From assembly GCF_011045215.1 (NCBI RefSeq), contig NZ_CP049201.1: DNA of 64,000 nucleotides; one strand, written 5' to 3'. This DNA comes from Escherichia coli. Its GTDB lineage: Bacteria; Pseudomonadota; Gammaproteobacteria; Enterobacterales; Enterobacteriaceae. Each line of letters starts with the position of its first letter. The stretch's first letter is position 1. Made by a program: the position numbers and the translations under genes. The notes beneath the pieces were generated by a model. It saw only the letters and a list, made by a program, of their open reading frames with translations, ran no database searches and was not told the DNA's origin. Positions 29 to 55,404 of the stretch are shown in pieces.

Positions 29-955
29 ATGATTGAATTTAGCCATGTCAGCAAACTGTTTGGCGCACAAAAAGCCGTTAACGATCTCAATCTCAATTTT
101 CAGGAAGGGAGTTTTTCGGTGCTGATTGGCACATCTGGCTCCGGCAAATCCACCACCCTGAAAATGATTAACCGCCTGGTGGAGCATGACAGCGGAGAGA
201 TCCGCTTTGCCGGAGAAGAAATTCGCTCGCTGCCAGTACTGGAGTTGCGCCGCCGTATGGGCTATGCCATTCAATCTATTGGCCTGTTTCCCCACTGGAG
301 CGTGGCACAAAACATTGCCACCGTGCCGCAATTACAAAAATGGTCGCGGGCGAGGATTGACGATCGTATCGACGAATTAATGGCGCTACTGGGGCTGGAG
401 TCAAATTTACGTGAGCGTTATCCACATCAGCTTTCCGGTGGTCAGCAGCAACGTGTGGGAGTGGCGCGTGCACTGGCTGCCGATCCGCAAGTCTTACTGA
501 TGGATGAACCTTTTGGCGCACTGGACCCGGTAACGCGCGGCGCGTTGCAACAAGAGATGACGCGCATTCACCGTTTGCTGGGGCGCACTATTGTGCTGGT
601 CACTCATGATATTGATGAGGCGCTACGGCTGGCAGAACATCTGGTATTGATGGATCACGGTGAAGTGGTGCAGCAGGGGAATCCGCTGACGATGCTGACT
701 CGTCCGGCGAATGATTTTGTCCGCCAGTTTTTTGGACGTAGTGAACTGGGTGTGCGCCTGCTTTCGTTACGTAGTGTGGCGGATTACGTGCGTCGCGAAG
801 AACAAGCAGAAGGTGAGGCACTGGCAGAAGAGATGACGCTACGCGATGCGCTCTCTCTGTTTGTCGCGCGGGGATGCGAGGTGCTGCCGGTGGTGAACAC
901 GCAGGGCCAGCCTTGCGGCACGCTGCATTTTCAGGATCTGCTGGTGGAGGCGTAA
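29..955 (+). CDS. yehX: ABC transporter ATP-binding subunit of the YehZYXW osmoprotectant (glycine betaine-type) uptake system
   Basis: 308 aa ORF; Walker [13 protein letters not shown] signature LSGGQQQRV, Walker B LLLMDEP; C-terminal CBS-like tail; followed 4 bp later by the permease gene. Confidence 0.9.
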
Positions 956-959
956 GCGT

Positions 960-1691
960 ATGAAGATGTTGCGCGATCCGCTGTTCTGGCTCATTGCTTT
1001 GTTTGTGGCACTGATTTTCTGGCTGCCTTACAGCCAGCCGCTGTTTGCTGCCTTGTTCCCACAACTGCCACGACCCGTTTATCAGCAAGAAAGTTTTGCA
1101 GCTCTGGCACTGGCTCATTTCTGGCTGGTGGGAATTTCGAGTTTGTTTGCGGTGATCATTGGTACTGGTGCCGGAATTGCTGTCACTCGCCCGTGGGGCG
1201 CGGAATTTCGCCCACTGGTGGAAACTATTGCCGCCGTTGGACAGACTTTTCCGCCCGTCGCGGTGCTGGCGATCGCCGTTCCGGTGATCGGGTTTGGTCT
1301 GCAACCAGCGATTATCGCCTTGATCCTTTACGGTGTGCTGCCCGTCCTGCAGGCGACACTTGCCGGGCTGGGAGCGATTGATGCCAGCGTGACAGAAGTT
1401 GCGAAAGGTATGGGAATGAGTCGTGGTCAGCGACTGCGTAAGGTCGAGCTACCGCTGGCGGCTCCGGTGATTCTGGCGGGCGTGCGAACTTCGGTGATTA
1501 TCAACATTGGTACGGCGACGATCGCCTCAACGGTAGGGGCCAGCACGCTGGGTACGCCCATCATCATCGGGCTTAGCGGATTTAATACCGCGTATGTGAT
1601 CCAGGGGGCGTTACTGGTGGCACTGGCGGCGATCATCGCAGACCGCCTGTTTGAAAGGCTGGTGCAGGCGCTTAGCCAGCACGCAAAATAA
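960..1691 (+). CDS. yehW: ABC transporter permease subunit of the YehZYXW system
   Basis: 243 aa hydrophobic multi-TM ORF immediately downstream of yehX; matches K-12 YehW length and context. Confidence 0.9.
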
Positions 1692-1779
1692 AGGTATAAC
1701 CTGCGAGCATGACGCCACCAATTCCGCCTAACGCCATAAACAGGAACAGGGCGATGACCCCAATTTTAGCTATGCGCAT
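1675..1779 (-). CDS. yohO: small (34 aa) hydrophobic membrane protein, convergent with and overlapping the yehW 3' end
   Basis: Hand-translated minus-strand [38 protein letters not shown], below the 60 aa cutoff of the ORF track; single predicted TM helix; position between mlrA and yehW matches the K-12 small protein YohO as I recall it. Confidence 0.6.
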
Positions 1780-1838
1780 AATGCACTCCTTATGTTAACG
1801 AAAGGATTGTACAGTAAAGCGCATTTGTTAACGAATCA

Positions 1839-2570
1839 TTAAATGCCGAGTGGGAAAATATCATAGCCTTGTTCTTGCCAACTGGTGAGTTGCTGTTGTT
1901 GGGCGGAGGTTCGATTTTCACCGCACCACACCAGCAATGTACGGCCTTCGAACAGTTCAGGGCGTAGTTGATTGAGCGAGTGGGCGAGGACATCAATGCG
2001 CCATCCTTGTTGACTGGCAATCCAGCCCTCCAGCCACAGACGGGTGGTATCGTGAATATTCCAGCCAACCACCAGCGCATCTTTACCCTGTTTTTTACGT
2101 GCCGAAGCCAGACAGATGGCGATGTAGTTGATCAGTACGCCGTCGAGGATCGCCAGCAGCGCCTGGAGAGTCGGTTGTTGGCACTGAAGCCGTCGGCGCA
2201 GAGGAATAAACAGATGCGTGGTGAGCGTCTGGGCGGGGTAATCCTGACCGCGCTCTTTGATCCACGTTCGCAGGCTATGCAGATTGCCGCTTTGCAAGTA
2301 AGTCAGTAATGTTTCTTGCTGATCGCGCCAGCCGTTCTGCACATCAACATTTTCATTACTGAGCAGCATTTTAACTTTGCTGACCTGCACGCCGTTGTCG
2401 ATCCAGCGTTTGATCTCGCGGATCCGGTCAATATCGGCATCGTTGAACAGCCGATGACCGCCGTCTGTCCGTTGCGGTTTCAGCAATCCGTAACGCCTCT
2501 GCCACGCGCGTAACGTGACAGGGTTAATATCACAAAGCAACGCCACTTCACCAATTGTGTAAAGCGCCAT
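1839..2570 (-). CDS. mlrA: MerR-family transcriptional regulator (activator of csgD/curli)
   Basis: 243 aa; N-terminal MerR HTH (YTIGEVALLCDINPVTLRAWQRRYGLLKPQRTDGGHRLF); K-12 context. Confidence 0.9.
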   Translation of the reverse strand: MALYTIGEVALLCDINPVTLRAWQRRYGLLKPQRTDGGHRLFNDADIDRIREIKRWIDNGVQVSKVKMLLSNENVDVQNGWRDQQETLLTYLQSGNLHSLRTWIKERGQDYPAQTLTTHLFIPLRRRLQCQQPTLQALLAILDGVLINYIAICLASARKKQGKDALVVGWNIHDTTRLWLEGWIASQQGWRIDVLAHSLNQLRPELFEGRTLLVWCGENRTSAQQQQLTSWQEQGYDIFPLGI

Positions 2571-2791
2571 CGTCTCACCCTTGCTCGCGAGGTCCCGGTT
2601 TAACTTTAGACGCAGTTTTGCGAACCAGGTAGTTTTACCCGTTTTTTGTGCATCTATAGGGTGATTTTATTTTTGCCAGGCGATTTTGAGTGATCGTACT
2701 CACGAATTCTCATTTTTCTGCAAGAGTTCAAAGAAAGTTAAACGCAGGCAATGTATGTTACGCGTTTTAAAGGGAAGTGTGGTTTGCGGGT

Positions 2792-4477
2792 ATGTACGAT
2801 TTTAATCTGGTGTTGCTGCTGCTTCAGCAGATGTGCGTTTTTTTAGTCATTGCATGGTTAATGAGTAAAACGCCATTATTCATACCGTTAATGCAGGTCA
2901 CGGTTCGTCTGCCGCATAAATTTCTCTGCTACATCGTCTTTTCCATCTTCTGCATCATGGGCACCTGGTTTGGGTTGCACATTGACGATTCTATTGCCAA
3001 TACCCGTGCGATAGGCGCGGTAATGGGCGGCTTACTCGGCGGTCCGGTCGTCGGTGGGCTGGTTGGCCTGACCGGCGGGTTACATCGATATTCGATGGGG
3101 GGCATGACCGCGCTAAGTTGCATGATCTCGACCATCGTTGAAGGATTGCTCGGCGGCCTGGTACACAGCATCCTGATCCGTCGCGGGCGCACTGATAAAG
3201 TCTTTAACCCCATTACCGCTGGTGCCGTCACGTTCGTCGCTGAAATGGTGCAAATGCTGATCATCCTGGCGATCGCCCGACCTTATGAAGATGCGGTGCG
3301 TCTGGTGAGTAATATTGCTGCGCCAATGATGGTCACCAATACCGTCGGCGCGGCGCTGTTTATGCGTATATTGCTCGATAAACGCGCGATGTTTGAAAAA
3401 TACACTTCGGCTTTTTCTGCCACTGCGCTGAAAGTGGCAGCCTCGACGGAAGGCATTTTGCGCCAGGGGTTTAACGAAGTGAACAGCATGAAAGTGGCAC
3501 AGGTGCTGTATCAGGAGCTGGATATTGGTGCAGTCGCGATTACCGATCGAGAGAAATTGCTGGCCTTTACCGGAATTGGTGACGATCACCATTTACCCGG
3601 CAAACCGATTTCTTCGACTTACACCTTAAAAGCGATTGAAACCGGTGAAGTGGTCTACGCTGATGGCAACGAAGTACCTTATCGTTGCTCTTTGCATCCG
3701 CAATGCAAACTGGGGTCGACGCTGGTAATTCCGTTGCGTGGTGAAAATCAGCGGGTGATGGGCACCATCAAATTGTATGAAGCCAAAAACCGTTTATTTA
3801 GTTCAATCAACCGCACGTTGGGTGAGGGGATTGCGCAATTGCTTTCGGCGCAGATCCTTGCCGGGCAATATGAGCGGCAAAAAGCGATGCTCACCCAGTC
3901 AGAGATCAAACTGCTTCACGCCCAGGTGAATCCCCATTTTTTGTTTAATGCGCTTAACACCATTAAAGCGGTGATCCGCCGCGACAGCGAACAGGCCAGC
4001 CAGCTGGTGCAGTATCTTTCCACTTTTTTCCGCAAAAACTTAAAGCGGCCTTCGGAGTTTGTTACTCTCGCCGACGAAATTGAACATGTGAACGCTTATC
4101 TGCAAATTGAAAAGGCGCGCTTCCAGTCGCGGTTGCAGGTCAACATTGCTATTCCGCAAGAATTATCCCAGCAGCAATTGCCCGCGTTTACCCTGCAACC
4201 GATAGTGGAAAACGCCATTAAACATGGGACATCACAACTGCTGGATACAGGGCGAGTGGCAATCAGCGCCCGACGTGAGGGGCAACATTTGATGCTGGAG
4301 ATCGAAGACAATGCCGGTTTGTATCAACCGGTAACCAATGCCAGTGGGCTGGGGATGAATCTGGTGGATAAGCGTTTACGTGAACGGTTTGGCGATGACT
4401 ATGGGATAAGCGTCGCCTGTGAGCCTGATAGTTACACCCGAATAACGTTACGACTACCATGGAGGGACGAGGCATGA
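2792..4477 (+). CDS. btsS: LytS-type sensor histidine kinase of the pyruvate-responsive BtsS/BtsR system
   Basis: 561 aa from ATG 2792 (ORF track begins 15 nt upstream at GTG); 5TM Lyt domain, GAF, His-kinase region; stop overlaps btsR start (ATGA). Confidence 0.9.
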
Positions 4478-5193
4478 TTAAAGTCTTAATTGTCGATGAT
4501 GAACCGTTAGCACGGGAGAACCTGCGCGTATTTTTGCAGGAGCAGAGCGATATTGAAATCGTTGGAGAGTGTTCAAACGCCGTGGAAGGGATCGGCGCGG
4601 TGCATAAACTGCGCCCGGATGTGCTGTTTCTCGATATCCAGATGCCGCGCATCAGTGGTCTGGAAATGGTGGGGATGCTTGACCCGGAACATCGTCCGTA
4701 TATCGTTTTTCTCACCGCGTTTGACGAATACGCTATTAAAGCCTTTGAAGAACATGCCTTTGATTATCTGCTGAAGCCAATTGATGAAGCGCGACTGGAG
4801 AAAACGCTGGCGCGATTGCGTCAGGAGCGCAGCAAGCAGGATGTTTCGTTGTTACCGGAAAATCAACAGGCGCTGAAATTTATCCCTTGTACGGGGCATA
4901 GTCGGATTTATTTGCTGCAAATGAAAGATGTGGCATTTGTCAGCAGTCGGATGAGCGGTGTCTACGTTACCAGCCACGAAGGGAAAGAGGGCTTTACCGA
5001 ATTGACATTACGTACCCTGGAAAGTCGTACACCACTACTGCGCTGCCATCGTCAGTATCTGGTTAACCTCGCGCATTTACAGGAGATTCGTCTGGAAGAT
5101 AACGGCCAGGCCGAGTTGATTTTGCGTAATGGCTTAACCGTGCCGGTCAGCCGCCGTTATCTGAAAAGCTTAAAAGAGGCGATTGGCCTGTAA
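4474..5193 (+). CDS. btsR: LytTR-family response regulator BtsR
   Basis: 239 aa from [16 protein letters not shown]; receiver domain plus LytTR DNA-binding domain; ATGA overlap with btsS. Confidence 0.9.
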
Positions 5194-5239
5194 AAGACTG
5201 CTAAAATGGCTTTTTGCCTCATCAACACCTGAAGGCCTC

Positions 5240-5710
5240 ATGCTAAGTAACGATATTCTGCGCAGCGTGCGCTACATTTTGAAAGCCAATAATAATGACC
5301 TGGTGCGTATTCTGGCGCTGGGTAATGTCGAAGCCACCGCGGAACAGATCGCCGTCTGGCTACGTAAAGAAGACGAAGAGGGTTTTCAGCGTTGTCCGGA
5401 CATTGTTTTGTCGTCATTCCTCAATGGCCTGATTTATGAAAAACGCGGCAAGGATGAGTCTGCTCCGGCACTGGAGCCGGAACGTCGCATTAATAACAAC
5501 ATCGTGCTGAAAAAATTACGCATCGCGTTTTCGCTGAAAACCGATGACATTCTGGCGATCCTCACCGAACAGCAGTTCCGCGTTTCGATGCCGGAAATTA
5601 CAGCGATGATGCGCGCACCGGATCATAAAAACTTCCGCGAATGCGGCGATCAATTTTTACGTTATTTTCTGCGTGGACTGGCAGCGCGCCAGCATGTGAA
5701 GAAAAGCTAA
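5240..5710 (+). CDS. yehS: DUF1456-family protein
   Basis: 156 aa from internal Met MLSNDILRSV of the 175 aa ORF; K-12 gene order. Confidence 0.8.
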   Translation: MLSNDILRSVRYILKANNNDLVRILALGNVEATAEQIAVWLRKEDEEGFQRCPDIVLSSFLNGLIYEKRGKDESAPALEPERRINNNIVLKKLRIAFSLKTDDILAILTEQQFRVSMPEITAMMRAPDHKNFRECGDQFLRYFLRGLAARQHVKKS

Positions 5711-49950: not shown

Positions 49951-50850
49951 TTAACGCAATAATGGGCAATCTGGTGGTAATCGACAACGCAACGCCGCCG
50001 GAAGTATTTCAATATGAAAGTTTTGCCCACTCAACGGTTCGCCATCAAGATTAAAAGTGATTTCGTGTGGGGCTTGTATATCAAACCACGACGAAGCGCC
50101 TTCGATAATATTCGGGTTATCTTCGTCAGATTTTAAGGTTGATACGAGAGCTGGAAGAATTTCATCGCCGGTAAAAATGCGCAGTTGCAGCAAGCCATCG
50201 TTAATTAACGCGTTCGGACACAATTGCTGACCGCCACCGGCCTGACGCCCGTTACCAATACCAATGACCAGGGCGTCACCTTGCCAGTGAAAGTTTTCAC
50301 CGCGGATTTCACAACGGTCCGGTTGCAGAGTATCCATGCGCATTAAGCCATGAATGATGTAAGAGACGCCACCCAGCGCGGCTTTTAATTTTTCCGGCGT
50401 TTCTGTGGTAATACGCGTCCCAAACCCGCCTGTCGCCATATTAATAAAACAGGTTTGTTTGTTGACCTGCGCCATATCTATCGCAATGGCGTTACCGGCA
50501 ATTGCCAGTTTCAGCGCCTTATCCAGTGCCTCAGGAATCCCTACACTGGTGGCAAAATCATTGGCGGTTCCTAATGGCAAAATTCCCAGCGCGGGTATGT
50601 TATCCCCCTCACACTGAATCAACGCCGTAGAAACTTCATTAATGGTGCCATCGCCACCACCGGCAATCACCGTTGCGACGCCCAACTTCCGAGCCTCCTC
50701 TACATATCGTGCGGCATCGCCTTTCTCCCAGGTGACCCGCACATGGATCGTCATTCCTTCCTCACGCAACAGCATAATTGCTTCGCGCAATGGTAAATTG
50801 TCAGTACTTTTGCCATTAAGAATCAGTAAGCTGGCGGGAAATTCTGCCAT
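49951..50850 (-). CDS. yegS: DAG-kinase-like lipid kinase
   Basis: 299 aa ([18 protein letters not shown]...GGGDGT). Confidence 0.9.
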
Positions 50851-51254
50851 GATCGTATGTGCCTTTATGATTGGTCTGTAGATAGTGTAGAGCAGAAAAG
50901 AAAAGGTGGAGTCAGAACAGGATGAAAGTCGGAGGATAAAAAGTCAGTTCAAGTATGGAGGATTCAGTGGTTACCACCAGGAGCTTGCAATTGGGACAGC
51001 GAATACTAACGGCAGCCACCGATAAATGTTAAAAAAGAGCATATACCTAATATTCAACTAAACAGTGGCATCTTCAATATAATATATTAAAGCCCCCATG
51101 GAGTTACCCGGAAGGGCCTCCATGTCCGTAATTCCTACTTATGTAGGAAATGTTGTACAGAACATTTATTATAATCCTATTCAATTATAATAATCAGCCA
51201 TTATTATATTTAAACACTAGAGAGTGTCGTTGGTATTTAATGGGGAAAGGTGAG

Positions 51255-51572
51255 ATGAAAAAGATAGCTGCTATATCATTAATTAGTATTTTTATTATGT
51301 CTGGTTGTGCTGTGCATAATGATGAGACAAGTATCGGTAAATTTGGTCTTGCATATAAAAGTAATATTCAGCGTAAACTCGATAACCAATACTACACCGA
51401 AGCCGAAGCTTCTTTAGCCAGGGGCAGAATATCTGGTGCAGAAAATATAGTAAAAAATGATGCAGCCCATTTCTGTGTTACTCAGGGCAAAAAAATGCAG
51501 ATAGTTGACCTGAAGACAGAAGGTGCAGGATTACATGGCGTCGCTCGTCTGACATTCAAATGTGGAGAGTGA
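51255..51572 (+). CDS. yegR: small lipoprotein of unknown function
   Basis: 105 aa from MKKIAAISLISIFIMSGC (lipobox); ORF track starts 35 codons upstream. Confidence 0.8.
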   Translation: MKKIAAISLISIFIMSGCAVHNDETSIGKFGLAYKSNIQRKLDNQYYTEAEASLARGRISGAENIVKNDAAHFCVTQGKKMQIVDLKTEGAGLHGVARLTFKCGE

Positions 51573-51730
51573 GAATATTTTTTGGTAAGCGTCAAACATG
51601 CGCGTTCTGGCTGTGCGTAGCCGGAACCTGTGGGAGCACGATGCCGATAAGTGTAAGGCATCGTGCTATGAAGGGAGATTCTATCGATGTGGTCAATGGA
51701 AGACGGTGACCAGGGATAGGGCTTATGCAT

Positions 51731-51817
51731 AAAAAATAAGCCCGTGTAAGGGAGATTACACAGGCTAAGGAGGTGGTTCCTGGTACAGCTAGCATTTTAT
51801 GGGTTATGTTTTTCAGC
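51731..51817 (-). ncRNA. cyaR: Hfq-dependent sRNA CyaR (RyeE)
   Basis: Minus-strand sequence gctgaaaaacataacccataaaatgctagctgtaccaggaaccacctccttagcctgtgtaatctcccttacacgggcttatttttt matches CyaR as I recall it, including the intrinsic terminator. Confidence 0.85.
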
Positions 51818-51851
51818 GAAACGGATGATAACCTTAATAAATGCAGCTGTA

Positions 51852-51867
51852 TGTGATCGGTTTCTAA
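51852..51867. promoter_or_regulatory. candidate CRP site (TGTGA-N6-TCTAA) about 41 bp upstream of the cyaR 5' end
   Basis: One perfect half-site and one degenerate half-site; position fits the class II CRP activation known for cyaR. Confidence 0.4.
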
Positions 51868-51901
51868 GAATTTTCCATCCGGGAAAAATAATCGAAATTA
51901 A

Positions 51902-53263
51902 TCACTTACCGTGTGGGTTACGCGTGGTTTCCCCGGAGAAATTACGCATCAGCAGCGCGTAATTTAGCTCAAGATCCTGCGGCACCGGGAGCCACACAGT
52001 ATAACCATCGCCTGGTGCTACCGGCATAGCTTCGCCTTTGGCGTTTTCCATCTGCTCAAGGGTAAAGTTAATGTTGCCTTGCGGCGTCATCAGCTCAAGG
52101 CTGTCGCCAACGGAGAATTTATTTTTCACCGCTACCGCCGCGAGGTCCCCCTTGCGCTCACCGGTAAACTCACCAACAAACTGCTGGCGGTCAGAAACCG
52201 AATAACCGTATTCGTAGTTCTGATAATCGTCGTGAGTATGACGACGCAGGAAACCTTCGGTATAGCCACGATGCGCCAGACCTTCCAGAGTTTCCAGCAG
52301 GCTGGTATCGAACGGTTTGCCCGCAGCGGCGTCATCAATAGCTTTGCGGTAAACCTGTGCGGTGCGTGCGCAATAGTAGAAAGATTTGGTACGGCCTTCG
52401 ATTTTCAGCGAATGCACGCCCATTTTGGTCAGGCGTTCAACATGGGCGATGGCGCGCAGATCTTTCGAGTTCATGATGTAAGTGCCGTGCTCATCTTCAA
52501 ACGCGGTCATATACTCGCCCGGACGCTGGGCTTCTTCGATCATAAACACTTTGTCGGTTGGCGCGCCGATACCCAGCGTCGGCTCAACATTTTGCACCGG
52601 AATCGGCTCGTACTTGTGTACGATGTTGCCAACTTCATCTTCTTTCCCTTCCTGGACGTTGTACTCCCAGCGGCAGGCGTTGGTGCAGGTACCCTGGTTC
52701 GGGTCGCGCTTGTTGATATAGCCAGAGAGCAGGCAGCGACCGGAGTAGGCCATGCACAGTGCGCCGTGAACGAAGATCTCGATCTCCATATCCGGCACCT
52801 GATTACGGATCTCTTCAATCTCTTCCAGCGACAGCTCGCGAGAGAGGATCACGCGGGTCAGGCCCATTTGCTGCCAGAATTTCACCGTCGCCCAGTTTAC
52901 GGCGTTAGCCTGCACCGAGAGGTGGATCGGCATTTCAGGGAAGTGCTCACGCACCAGCATAATCAGCCCTGGATCGGACATAATCAGCGCATCCGGCCCC
53001 ATTTCCACCACCGGTTTCAGGTCACGGATAAAGGTTTTCAGCTTGGCGTTGTGCGGTGCAATGTTGACCACGACATAAAACTTTTTCCCCAGCGCGTGGG
53101 CTTCATTGATGCCGAGCTGAAGATTTTCGTGGTTGAATTCGTTGTTGCGCACACGCAGGGAGTAACGCGGCTGGCCCGCATAAACAGCATCTGCGCCATA
53201 AGCGAAAGCGTAACGCATATTTTTCAGCGTTCCCGCCGGGGAAAGGAGTTCCGGTTTAAACAT
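51902..53263 (-). CDS. trhP: peptidase U32-family protein required for tRNA ho5U34 hydroxylation
   Basis: 453 aa (MFKPELLSPAGTLKNMRYAFAYGADAVYAGQPRYSLR...); K-12 yegQ. Confidence 0.9.
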   Translation of the reverse strand: MFKPELLSPAGTLKNMRYAFAYGADAVYAGQPRYSLRVRNNEFNHENLQLGINEAHALGKKFYVVVNIAPHNAKLKTFIRDLKPVVEMGPDALIMSDPGLIMLVREHFPEMPIHLSVQANAVNWATVKFWQQMGLTRVILSRELSLEEIEEIRNQVPDMEIEIFVHGALCMAYSGRCLLSGYINKRDPNQGTCTNACRWEYNVQEGKEDEVGNIVHKYEPIPVQNVEPTLGIGAPTDKVFMIEEAQRPGEYMTAFEDEHGTYIMNSKDLRAIAHVERLTKMGVHSLKIEGRTKSFYYCARTAQVYRKAIDDAAAGKPFDTSLLETLEGLAHRGYTEGFLRRHTHDDYQNYEYGYSVSDRQQFVGEFTGERKGDLAAVAVKNKFSVGDSLELMTPQGNINFTLEQMENAKGEAMPVAPGDGYTVWLPVPQDLELNYALLMRNFSGETTRNPHGK

Positions 53264-53365
53264 AATTCTCTCGTTCTGATGACAGGTCAGATCCGCTTCA
53301 CCTGATGAAGCGGTTAGGGGAGTGCCCCCACTTTAAGGGCGGGCATTGTAGCGCAATCGGCGGGT

Positions 53366-53662
53366 TTAGCTCCAGTGTAAATGTCTGGTGGCGTCCTGGT
53401 TTTGGTTAAGGATACGAATGACGATAATTTCCCCTGGTGATTGCAGGAAATAAATTACGTGGCGTTCAAAAGGAAGAACAAAAATACCTTCGCCTAATTC
53501 AGGTCTGGGCGTACCTATATTATTGTTACTCAGAATCTGGAGAACGTCTGAAAGATGTTCCACATATCTGTCGGCTTGTGGTTCGCCGAAATGGTGATAA
53601 CTGTAATACCAGATGCCTTCTAAATCCTCATTGGCTTTTGGCATGAGTTTAATAATACGCAC
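53366..53662 (-). CDS. ParE/RelE-superfamily type II toxin
   Basis: 98 aa from GTG, or 92 aa from ATG at 53644; ParE-like pattern (EDLEGIWYYSYHHFGEPQADRYVEHL ... IYFLQSPGEIIVIRILNQNQD); starts 1 nt after the antitoxin stop. Confidence 0.7.
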   Translation of the reverse strand: MRIIKLMPKANEDLEGIWYYSYHHFGEPQADRYVEHLSDVLQILSNNNIGTPRPELGEGIFVLPFERHVIYFLQSPGEIIVIRILNQNQDATRHLHWS

Positions 53663-53663
53663 A

Positions 53664-53915
53664 TTATTTCCTTATCCCTGCTTTCACCTTCCGTAAAAAC
53701 GCGTCCTTTTCCCACGGCTGAGCTTCACCACTACTCAACCCTTCTGCAAGCATGTCACGTAACGCTTGCAGGCGAGACTCTGCTTGCTTTTCTCGAAGTA
53801 AGCGCAGTGACTCACGGATCACTTCGCTTTGGGTGCGATAGTCGCCGGATTCAATTAAGGACTCGATAAATTCACGCAACTCATCGCCGAGATCAACCGT
53901 CATCGTTCTGGCCAT
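53664..53915 (-). CDS. ParD-family (RHH/CopG-like) antitoxin
   Basis: 83 aa MARTMTVDLGDELREFIESLIESGDYRTQSEVIRESLRLLREKQ..., typical ParD (COG3609-like) N-terminus; immediately upstream of the toxin. Confidence 0.7.
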   Translation of the reverse strand: MARTMTVDLGDELREFIESLIESGDYRTQSEVIRESLRLLREKQAESRLQALRDMLAEGLSSGEAQPWEKDAFLRKVKAGIRK

Positions 53916-53928
53916 GTTTATGCTCTCC

Positions 53929-53947
53929 TGTAAGTAAAAATCTTACA
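53929..53947. promoter_or_regulatory. palindrome TGTAAGt-N5-TCTTACA just upstream of the antitoxin start; candidate autoregulatory operator
   Basis: Inverted repeat seen in sequence next to the antitoxin ribosome-binding site; operator role inferred from type II TA paradigm. Confidence 0.35.
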
Positions 53948-54112
53948 TCAGTGTATGTCATAAACCGGATAGCGTCACGAAAAGTATTAGAAGATATTTT
54001 GGCAGATGAACATGTTCAGGAGGATAAGCATGGAGATGTTAAACAAAGAAAGCACAATGAGTATTCATCAGTGTCCACTATTTTAATGGCGCAGGTAAAT
54101 AAATAAGCGTTA

Positions 54113-54150
54113 TTTGGAAATAAAGCCGGACGCCAACAACCCACGCCCGG
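54113..54150 (-). terminator. candidate terminator downstream of yegP
   Basis: Minus-strand stem gccgggcg/cgtccggc followed by a T-rich run. Confidence 0.4.
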
Positions 54151-54158
54151 CATCGTAA

Positions 54159-54491
54159 TTACGTATTGTCTTTCACCGTCTGGCTTGTGCCATTGGCTTT
54201 AACGGAGGCAATTCCGGTTTCACGAGATTGCGCGGTGGCGTACATCTGGCTGGAGCCGATAATTTGATGATTGGCGGCTTTCAGATTGAAATAGAATTTG
54301 CCGTTACTTGCCGTTTTTTTCTCATAGCGTTCTTCTTGCGGGCTGTTGCTACGCACCGACGCGATGCCCTTTTCCGCAGAGGCTTTTGAGGTATACAGCT
54401 CGCTGGTGAGGATAGTCTCACCATTGCCCGCTTTTAGCACAAACCGGAACTGATTATCACTGCTCTTACTGAGTTCAAACCAACCAGCCAT
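54159..54491 (-). CDS. yegP: DUF1508 (UPF0339) tandem-domain protein
   Basis: 110 aa from MAGWFELSKSSDNQFRFVLKAGNGE; two repeats of the same small domain. Confidence 0.85.
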   Translation of the reverse strand: MAGWFELSKSSDNQFRFVLKAGNGETILTSELYTSKASAEKGIASVRSNSPQEERYEKKTASNGKFYFNLKAANHQIIGSSQMYATAQSRETGIASVKANGTSQTVKDNT

Positions 54492-54681
54492 AATGACTCC
54501 TTGATTGAAATTGCTTATCGAAAACAGCATCTAAAGGTGCTGTTTACCGATTAAAGTATGAGCGATTTTCTGGTGCCTGCCAGGGCGGAGAGATAATGTC
54601 AGTTTGCTGACCATGCGTGGGATAATGTTGCCGGATCTGGTCTGAATGCCATCTCCGGCTAACAAAGTCATGTCGCTAAAA

Positions 54682-55404
54682 CTAAACGATGCGACAGGCG
54701 TCGGCTTCCCAGCGGTAACCAACGCCGTAAACGGCGCGGATAAATGACTGTTCGGCGTCGAGAGATTCCAGCTTGCGGCGCAGGTTTTTAATGTGGCTGT
54801 CGATGGTGCGGTCGGTTACTACGCGGTAGTCGTCATAAAGATGATTGAGCAATTGCTCGCGGGAGAACACTTTTCCTGGTTCGTGAGAGAGCGTTTTCAG
54901 CAGACGAAATTCCGCAGGCGTCAGGTCAAGCATTTTACCGCGCCATGAAGCCTGAAAACGACCTTCGTCGATAATCAACGGGCTTTCAGCATCCTGTTGC
55001 TGCAACTCACGCTGCGGTTTGCAACGGCGCAAAATGGTTTTGACACGCGCTACCACTTCCCGTGGGCTGTACGGCTTGCAGATGTAGTCATCTGCGCCAA
55101 TCTCCAGCCCCAGCAGGCGGTCGATCTCTTCGATTTTTGCTGTCACCATCACGATAGGAATGTCAGAAAAACGACGAATTTCCCGGCACAGCGTCAAGCC
55201 ATCGGTGCCAGGGAGCATCAGATCCAACAGGATCAGATCCGGTGGTGTCTGGCGCACATACGGCAGTACCTGATCGCCGTGGCTGATAAGCGTCGGCGCA
55301 TAGCTCGCAGCACGCAGATAATCAATGAGCAACTGCCCCAGCTTCGGTTCATCTTCCACGATCAAAATACGCGGTGTGTTTTCGTCGATTGGTAACTCGG
55401 TCAT
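54682..55404 (-). CDS. baeR: OmpR-family response regulator of the Bae envelope-stress system
   Basis: 240 aa ([30 protein letters not shown]...). Confidence 0.9.

Follow-up and report, generated by a model that had tools for sequence, protein, structure and literature searches.

A chromosomal parD-parE gene pair between yegP and yegQ/trhP of Escherichia coli, very probably a canonical type II toxin-antitoxin operon

A 64,000-nucleotide stretch of Escherichia coli DNA (contig NZ_CP049201.1 of RefSeq assembly GCF_011045215.1; hereafter the window) carries, between yegP and yegQ/trhP, two adjacent genes that encode a ParD-type antitoxin and a toxin of the ParE/RelE fold. Our analysis establishes the gene pair, the family and fold assignments of its products, the integrity of both reading frames and the purifying selection that acts on them, and the conservation of an operator-like repeat in front of the first gene. 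We consider it very likely that the pair is a canonical type II ParD (PF03693)/ParE operon at one chromosomal site. The elements of the module are the following:

53664-53915, minus strand: parD antitoxin gene, 83 amino acids; predicted ribbon-helix-helix N-terminus and C-terminal toxin-binding region
53366-53662, minus strand: parE toxin gene, 98 amino acids; GTG start
53925-53928, minus strand: parD Shine-Dalgarno sequence GGAG, 9 nt before the ATG, as read from the sequence
53929-53947, no strand assigned: inverted repeat TGTAAG-ATTTTTA-CTTACA, probable ParD operator, between the putative -10 element and the ribosome-binding site
53950-53978, minus strand: putative sigma-70 promoter of parDE, with -35 element GTGACG (53973-53978), 17-nt spacer and -10 element TACACT (53950-53955)

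The parD and parE genes

The two genes are arranged as the initial annotation described them, with an antitoxin of 83 amino acids first and a toxin of 92–98 amino acids 1 nt later: a single base (53663) separates the parD stop codon TAA (53666-53664) from the parE GTG codon (53662-53660). They form a tightly spaced, co-oriented pair in which both frames are intact and a ribosome-binding site precedes each start. The shorter length given for the toxin corresponds to an alternative internal ATG, which would yield 92 amino acids; sequence comparison supports the 98-amino-acid GTG start instead, because homologues keep the GTG together with the first six residues, because plasmid copies carry Thr rather than Met at position 7, and because an AAGGAA element sits 6 nt upstream of the GTG.

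The antitoxin had been assigned to the ribbon-helix-helix/ParD type, and profile searches bear this out. ParD scores 88.4 bits against the NCBIfam model TIGR02606 (curated cut-off 46.2 bits), a model named after the Caulobacter antidote CC2985, with residues 4-74 covering model positions 1-69 of 70; it matches the Pfam family PF03693 at 4.7e-19 over residues 1-78; and it gives weak matches to RHH_1 (0.0034) and NikR. Its closest solved structure is PrpA (7YCS_D), the antitoxin of the PrpT/PrpA system of Pseudoalteromonas rubra, with about 61% identity over 77 residues (E 1.9e-27). Further matches from the Protein Data Bank (PDB) are the chromosomal ParDs VcParD2, CcParD1 and MtParD1, with E values of 3e-12 to 9e-11. 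As the alignments to all four begin at residue 1-3 of ParD, its N-terminus appears to be a ribbon-helix-helix domain homologous to those of the solved ParDs.

The toxin had been described as having a ParE/RelE fold, and both sequence and predicted structure agree: it matches PF05016 at 2e-13, with residues 4-90 covering model positions 1-88 of 89 (Pfam), and its nearest solved relatives are all ParE proteins. The PDB sequence matches are PrpT (2.3e-12), MtParE1, CcParE1, VcParE2 and Mesorhizobium ParE3; at E<=0.01 every match is a ParE-type toxin, and at E<=1 a search of all PDB sequences returned, besides these five ParE-type toxins, a single unrelated protein (E 0.34). An AlphaFold model of ParE, built on 11 homologues, has a mean predicted confidence score (pLDDT) of 90.3 and consists of a strand, two long helices and three strands. 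When this model was compared with the PDB by Foldseek, the top 23 chains were all ParE-type toxins, with TM-scores (normalized by query length) of 0.64-0.87; RelE, YoeB and YafQ ranked below these chains, at about 0.5-0.66. By sequence and by modelled fold, ParE thus lies nearer to proven ParE toxins than to the RelE, YoeB and YafQ RNases.

Comparison with the homologous module of E. whittamii points to constraint on both proteins. In parD we counted 8 synonymous and 1 non-synonymous differences, giving a ratio of non-synonymous to synonymous divergence (dN/dS) of 0.03; in parE there were 9 synonymous and 4 non-synonymous differences (dN/dS 0.11). Because non-synonymous changes are so few, we conclude that parD and parE have been maintained as coding sequences. 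Across the 9 E. coli loci sampled the ParD protein is identical and ParE varies at up to four positions, the open reading frames of both being intact in all sampled alleles; the ParE of the window has the same sequence as RefSeq WP_001220181.1, the protein annotated in XH990. RefSeq already labels the proteins ParD/ParE and names their families correctly in some 1,800 complete genomes; its product name for the toxin is "RelE/ParE family toxin".

The region upstream of parD

The palindrome that had been noticed at the 5′ end of the antitoxin gene is the repeat TGTAAG-N7-CTTACA at 53929-53947, which occurs once in the window. Its mere presence is weak evidence, because a 6+6 repeat in a short leader is not rare: the chance of a perfect one in a 60-nt leader is about 0.1 (about 45 starts × 11 spacers / 4096). 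Its conservation is more informative. Each of the 12 fetched loci that bear parD has exactly one GTAARAY-N5-CTTAC motif, directly upstream of that gene; plasmids of K. pneumoniae and E. coli (IncF) and the chromosome of P. gergoviae are among these loci. The five fetched loci without parD have no such motif. Upstream regions of three Escherichia alleles were aligned with those of the P. gergoviae chromosome and of two plasmids, a virulence plasmid of K. pneumoniae and an IncFIA/FIB plasmid of E. coli; what Escherichia has in common with the other three is limited to GTAAGAT-N5-CTTACA and a -10-like hexamer 2-3 nt upstream of it (TACACT, TATAAT, TAAACT or TATCAT), and the rest has diverged. Because the palindrome is kept in distant homologues whose other upstream sequence has diverged, it is probably the ParD operator.

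A parallel with PrpA is consistent with this assignment. The stretch RTMTVD, which we take to be the DNA-reading strand, is identical at the N-termini of ParD and PrpA, and the parDE repeat has a TGTAA core in common with the PrpA site. PrpA has been footprinted on TTTG(T/A)AAT (PMC7848731, PMC9731233).

The leaders of parD differ between alleles: the common E. coli allele reads GGCGGG, and the window allele and E. whittamii read GAGAGCA plus an extra C. Separately, in one E. coli ParD allele (P0053, 98 amino acids, a cluster of 510 member sequences) the start ATG has become ATA (...GGRKITRTMTV...); in this allele translation would start elsewhere, or the antitoxin would be compromised.

Polymorphism of the yegP-yegQ site and relatives elsewhere

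In the sense of transcription the order of the genes, taken from the open reading frame list and the sequence, is yegP, parD, parE and yegQ/trhP, all on the minus strand. The spacer had been put at about 900 bp and described as much shorter in K-12. Measured between the yegQ start (53263) and the yegP stop (54159), it is 895 bp long, vs. 146 bp in K-12 BW25113, and the module is indeed no part of the K-12 arrangement. Alignment of the spacer with K-12 and with other E. coli genomes, a comparison that the initial annotation had proposed, gave the boundaries of the additional segment:

53355-54125, no strand assigned: accessory segment absent from K-12, 771 bp, boundaries by alignment; K-12 has 22 nt (CGCTTTACCAGAGCCCCCCACA) in its place
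54125-54151, minus strand: yegP terminator hairpin at the left junction, GCCGGGCG...CGTCCGGC, then TTTATTTCC; context only
54159-54491, minus strand: yegP, open reading frame
51902-53263, minus strand: yegQ/trhP, open reading frame

On the yegP side the shared flank ends at ...GGCGTCCGG (54126), and on the yegQ side it resumes at GCGCTACAATG (53354). Inspection of the alignment revealed no target-site duplications and no direct, inverted or terminal repeats at the ends of the 771-bp segment, and there is no mobility gene inside it (53355-54125). The T run after the yegP terminator hairpin comes from the accessory segment. The 22-nt filler of K-12 shares TTTAC..GAGC..CCC with the 3′ end of parE, a similarity too weak to decide whether it is a relic.

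The module had been taken for a small strain-specific insertion, which the wider comparison does not uphold: it is a presence/absence polymorphism. Of 5,426 complete E. coli genomes, 1,843 have the module, each as one chromosomal copy, and it also occurs in E. whittamii. Another 296 of the 5,426 keep only the last 42 nt of the segment, and the other genomes look like K-12; counting relics, 2,139 E. coli genomes show the segment in some form, in every case on the chromosome between yegP and yegQ. Strain A0 34/86 has a 5.3-kb island at the site (about 370-5560 of the fetched locus, in place of window 53385-54060) that encodes PcfJ-domain, DUF1266, DUF4034 and hypothetical proteins. Because it is flanked by about 65 nt and 42 nt of the ends of the parDE segment, we conclude that this island overwrote an earlier parDE. 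In E. whittamii the module lies at the same yegP-yegQ site, with ParD 99% and ParE 95% identical, and Escherichia sp. E1V33 has at this site an internally deleted relic (fetched locus 1354-1700), which keeps the left leader and parE codons ~56-98 and has lost parD and the first half of parE. For parD/parE, the synonymous divergence of the window from E. whittamii is 0.16, well below that of the flanking genes (baeR 0.56, yegP 1.0, yegQ 0.38); for this reason the module has probably moved between lineages by recombination after the species split. It is an old and common accessory polymorphism that has been repeatedly deleted, overwritten or exchanged by recombination, not a recent insertion. 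With at least three states (empty, parDE, and the 5.3-kb island replacing parDE), the yegP-yegQ spacer could be used to mark lineages.

Outside Escherichia, the nearest natural relatives are the parDE operons of IncF-type plasmids, which have the same operon layout and keep the operator repeat; they are plasmid-borne, whereas the window module is chromosomal. Relatives at 60-80% nucleotide identity (68-71% among the matches listed) occur in 881 plasmid records, mostly of conjugative IncF types in Escherichia, Klebsiella, Enterobacter and Salmonella. The copy on K. pneumoniae pINF078-VP (fetched locus 2495-3075) has both genes intact; identity is 92% for ParD and only 65% for ParE, so that its antitoxin is far better conserved than its toxin, which is unusual. 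On the E. coli IncFIA/FIB plasmid pRIVM_C039227_1 (fetched locus 2501-3089), parE is interrupted by in-frame stops and parD by a frameshift; this copy lies some 1.3 kb away from repB. On the chromosome of P. gergoviae ATCC 33028 (fetched locus 4001-4290), where there are no yegP/yegQ flanks, parD is 88% identical and has ATA replacing the start ATG, and parE matches in two frames with a stop and looks pseudogenized. Among deposited phage records there was one short partial match, in a 2-kb Salmonella record.

Some features of the surroundings were recorded as well. In the interval from the parE stop to the yegQ/trhP start (53264-53365) no hairpin is followed by a U run, so that read-through from parE into trhP may be possible. 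The accessory segment replaces a TTTACC of K-12 that lies at -35 distance from a TACAAT box upstream of yegQ, and transcription of yegQ may not be the same in strains that carry parDE and in strains that lack it. The non-coding sequence between the yegP terminator and the parD promoter contains a perfect 12-bp palindrome, TGAACATGTTCA (54007-54018), which is kept in E. whittamii and in all E. coli alleles examined. Two candidate genes in the spacer, a 51-amino-acid open reading frame on the plus strand (53951-54106) and an 18-amino-acid one behind AGGAGG in the stretch of about 210 nt between parD and the yegP terminator, were rejected, as 1-nt and 13-nt indels between E. coli alleles break the frame of each. 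In the spacer, Rfam gave only a sub-threshold match to "6A RNA" (E 0.42), which we dismissed; at the gathering threshold, a search of 50500-55000 found CyaR alone (51734-51819, minus strand), outside the module and downstream of yegQ. Between yegR and cyaR/yegQ, K-12 has a remnant of a P2-like prophage (ogrK and a fragment of late control D), which the window is missing (about 51573-51901); in Z142-7, P2-like phage tail and late-control genes stand there beside ogrK (fetched locus L001, 854-1366).

Proposed mechanism, alternatives and significance

Our reading of the locus as a canonical ParDE operon suggests the following scheme. A weak sigma-70 promoter (GTGACG-17-TACACT) would drive a bicistronic parD-parE mRNA, on which the 1-nt gap would permit translational coupling of the two genes. 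A ParD dimer, formed through the N-terminal ribbon-helix-helix domain, would bind TGTAAG-N7-CTTACA; because this repeat lies immediately downstream of the -10 element, binding would repress the operon. The transcription start site would fall in the palindrome, as is usual for autorepression. With its C-terminal part, ParD would wrap around ParE and neutralize it. If ParD were depleted, through proteolysis or a block of synthesis, free ParE would poison DNA gyrase, and gyrase poisoning would lead to DNA breaks, SOS induction and growth arrest. For operator binding, neutralization, lability of the antitoxin, the gyrase target and toxicity, we infer the behaviour of this module from the Caulobacter, Vibrio, Mycobacterium, Pseudomonas and RK2 systems. 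The effect on persistence and the stabilization of the neighbouring region that the initial annotation suggested would likewise be properties carried over from the family.

Among characterized systems, PrpT/PrpA of P. rubra plasmid pMBL6842 (PDB 7YCS/7YCU; PMC7848731, PMC9731233) is the best solved match for both proteins: PrpT and ParE share about one-third identity and superpose with a TM-score of 0.87 and a root-mean-square deviation of 1.1 Å, and the two systems have in common a PF03693 antitoxin with a PF05016 toxin, the antitoxin-first order, the RTMTVD N-terminus and the TGTAA core in the binding site. PrpT/PrpA, however, is plasmid-borne, and PrpA binds origin iterons and so limits plasmid copy number (PMC7848731, PMC9731233), whereas the window module is chromosomal, has no replication origin beside it and no replication gene within 3 kb, and has a clean 6+6 palindrome as its candidate operator; it is thus neither on a plasmid nor next to an iteron origin, as a copy-number controller of the PrpT/PrpA type would be. 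The chromosomal ParDEs with gyrase-poisoning toxins, namely Caulobacter ParDE1 (3KXE), M. tuberculosis ParDE1 (8C24), V. cholerae ParDE2 (7R5A) and P. aeruginosa ParDE1 (6XRW), are alike in architecture and fold (ParE matches of 6e-8 to 7e-7, TM-scores of 0.83-0.85), but their toxins are only 26-31% identical to that of the window, which has Phe25 in place of the Trp of VcParE2 that is important for the interaction with gyrase. The RK2 ParDE system has a toxin of the same Pfam family as ParE of the window, and the presumed target of RK2 ParE is reportedly gyrase. RK2 ParD, by contrast, belongs to PF09386 and is unrelated to the PF03693 antitoxin (PMC7848731).

Several points weigh against a canonical, gyrase-poisoning ParDE operon. 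The PF05016 match alone does not decide the target of the toxin, as this family also holds RelE-type RNases, RelE of E. coli K-12 among them, and is not divided by activity in Pfam (PMC11980606); nor does any NCBIfam model match the toxin. Phe25 aligns with Trp25, a key residue of VcParE2, at which Tyr alone kept full toxicity; the position is also Phe in PrpT, and Trp in MtParE1 and CcParE1. The promoter, read manually, matches 8 of 12 consensus positions, and an automatic promoter scan with a threshold of 9/12 called no minus-strand promoter. PrpT/PrpA is known for copy-number control through its antitoxin, and these studies of it report no gyrase target (PMC7848731, PMC9731233). Finally, the PGAP annotation flags ParD as a "frameshifted" pseudogene in XH990, whose spacer is identical to that of the window, and in EC12 (99.7%).

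If this flag were right, ParD of the window allele would be a true pseudogene and the toxin would be orphaned or decaying, a situation that we regard as scarcely credible. The reference behind the flag is a ParD of 98 amino acids that starts at an ATG 45 nt upstream (53961), and in the window allele the extra C, 1 nt before the conserved ATG, puts this upstream ATG out of frame (flagged region 53916-53961 of the window; also 3401-3698 of fetched locus L002 and 622-919 of L016). The extra C, however, lies outside the 83-amino-acid frame, which spans the whole ParD profile; and an orphan ParE should be lethal or soon inactivated, yet parE is intact. The flag is probably an artefact of an over-long reference start, because both the Pfam and the TIGRFAM model start at the conserved ATG; because Salmonella, Citrobacter, Klebsiella and Pluralibacter homologues begin with MARTMTVDL, have no N-terminal extension and differ only C-terminally; because the PrpA structure construct aligns from residue 2; because the ATG at 53961 has no ribosome-binding site and sits between the putative -35 and -10 elements; and because E. 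whittamii has the same extra C, together with the GAGAGCA leader. The RefSeq start would then be 15 codons too early, which would probably leave about 100 complete genomes mislabelled as having an antitoxin pseudogene, an estimate that starts from 394 records at >=99% identity, up to 296 of them relic-only. The breadth of PF05016 (PMC11980606) and the non-committal RefSeq product name would also allow the toxin to be a RelE-like, ribosome-dependent mRNA endonuclease rather than a gyrase poison. This is very unlikely: RelE structures are present in the PDB, yet the sequence search at E<=1 returned five ParE-type toxins and no RelE; 23 ParE-type chains lead the fold search ahead of RelE, YoeB and YafQ; and the partner is a PF03693 ParD, the usual partner of ParE (PMC7848731).

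Two further alternatives concern the role of the module rather than the identity of its parts. One holds that the antitoxin is what matters most: chromosomal ParD would cross-neutralize or cross-repress the parDE of IncF-type plasmids (anti-addiction), or act as a regulator, and the toxicity of ParE would be attenuated or secondary. The unequal conservation of antitoxin and toxin in pINF078-VP, the operator repeat in common with it, the many plasmids that carry relatives and the pseudogenized state of the single examined E. coli IncFIA/FIB copy are in keeping with this idea, as is the fact that PrpA regulates beyond its own operon (PMC7848731). On the other hand, parE is under purifying selection and intact in every sampled E. 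coli allele, which would be unexpected if only ParD mattered. We regard this alternative as unlikely; it is in any case compatible with a canonical ParDE operon and does not exclude it. The specific proposal that the chromosomal module serves for anti-addiction and cross-regulation directed at the related parDE of IncF-type virulence and resistance plasmids is doubtful in slightly greater measure: a ParD 92% identical to that of the plasmid would recognize the same operator, and could for this reason neutralize the plasmid toxin and repress the plasmid operon; on the model of PrpA, it might also touch IncFIB replication control. Were the proposal true, the third of E. coli that bear parDE would differ from the others in retaining or losing such plasmids, and the pseudogenized IncFIA/FIB copy would fit a lost addiction value in such hosts. 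The other alternative, a module that serves primarily as an anti-phage abortive-infection system, is improbable. Type II toxin-antitoxin systems can in general defend against phage, and the presence of a different, 5.3-kb island at the site in other strains suggests a variable hotspot; against this, PADLOC matches neither ParD nor ParE at E<=0.01, deposited phage records gave the single, partial match noted above, and no defence genes adjoin parDE.

The module between yegP and yegQ/trhP is thus already known by annotation, and belongs to a well-studied family, but is an experimentally uncharacterized locus. We found no experimental paper on it in the open-access literature, although such work may exist elsewhere, and a review of 2025 gives ParDE of E. 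coli as a plasmid system only. A comparative study has linked acquisition of ParDE-family modules, which may or may not include the locus described here, to later resistance mutations (PMC10575684). For the study of this ParD, the conserved palindrome offers a ready operator. Studies of quinolone tolerance could take parDE into account, as ParE toxins act on the target of the fluoroquinolones and a third of E. coli strains have the module.

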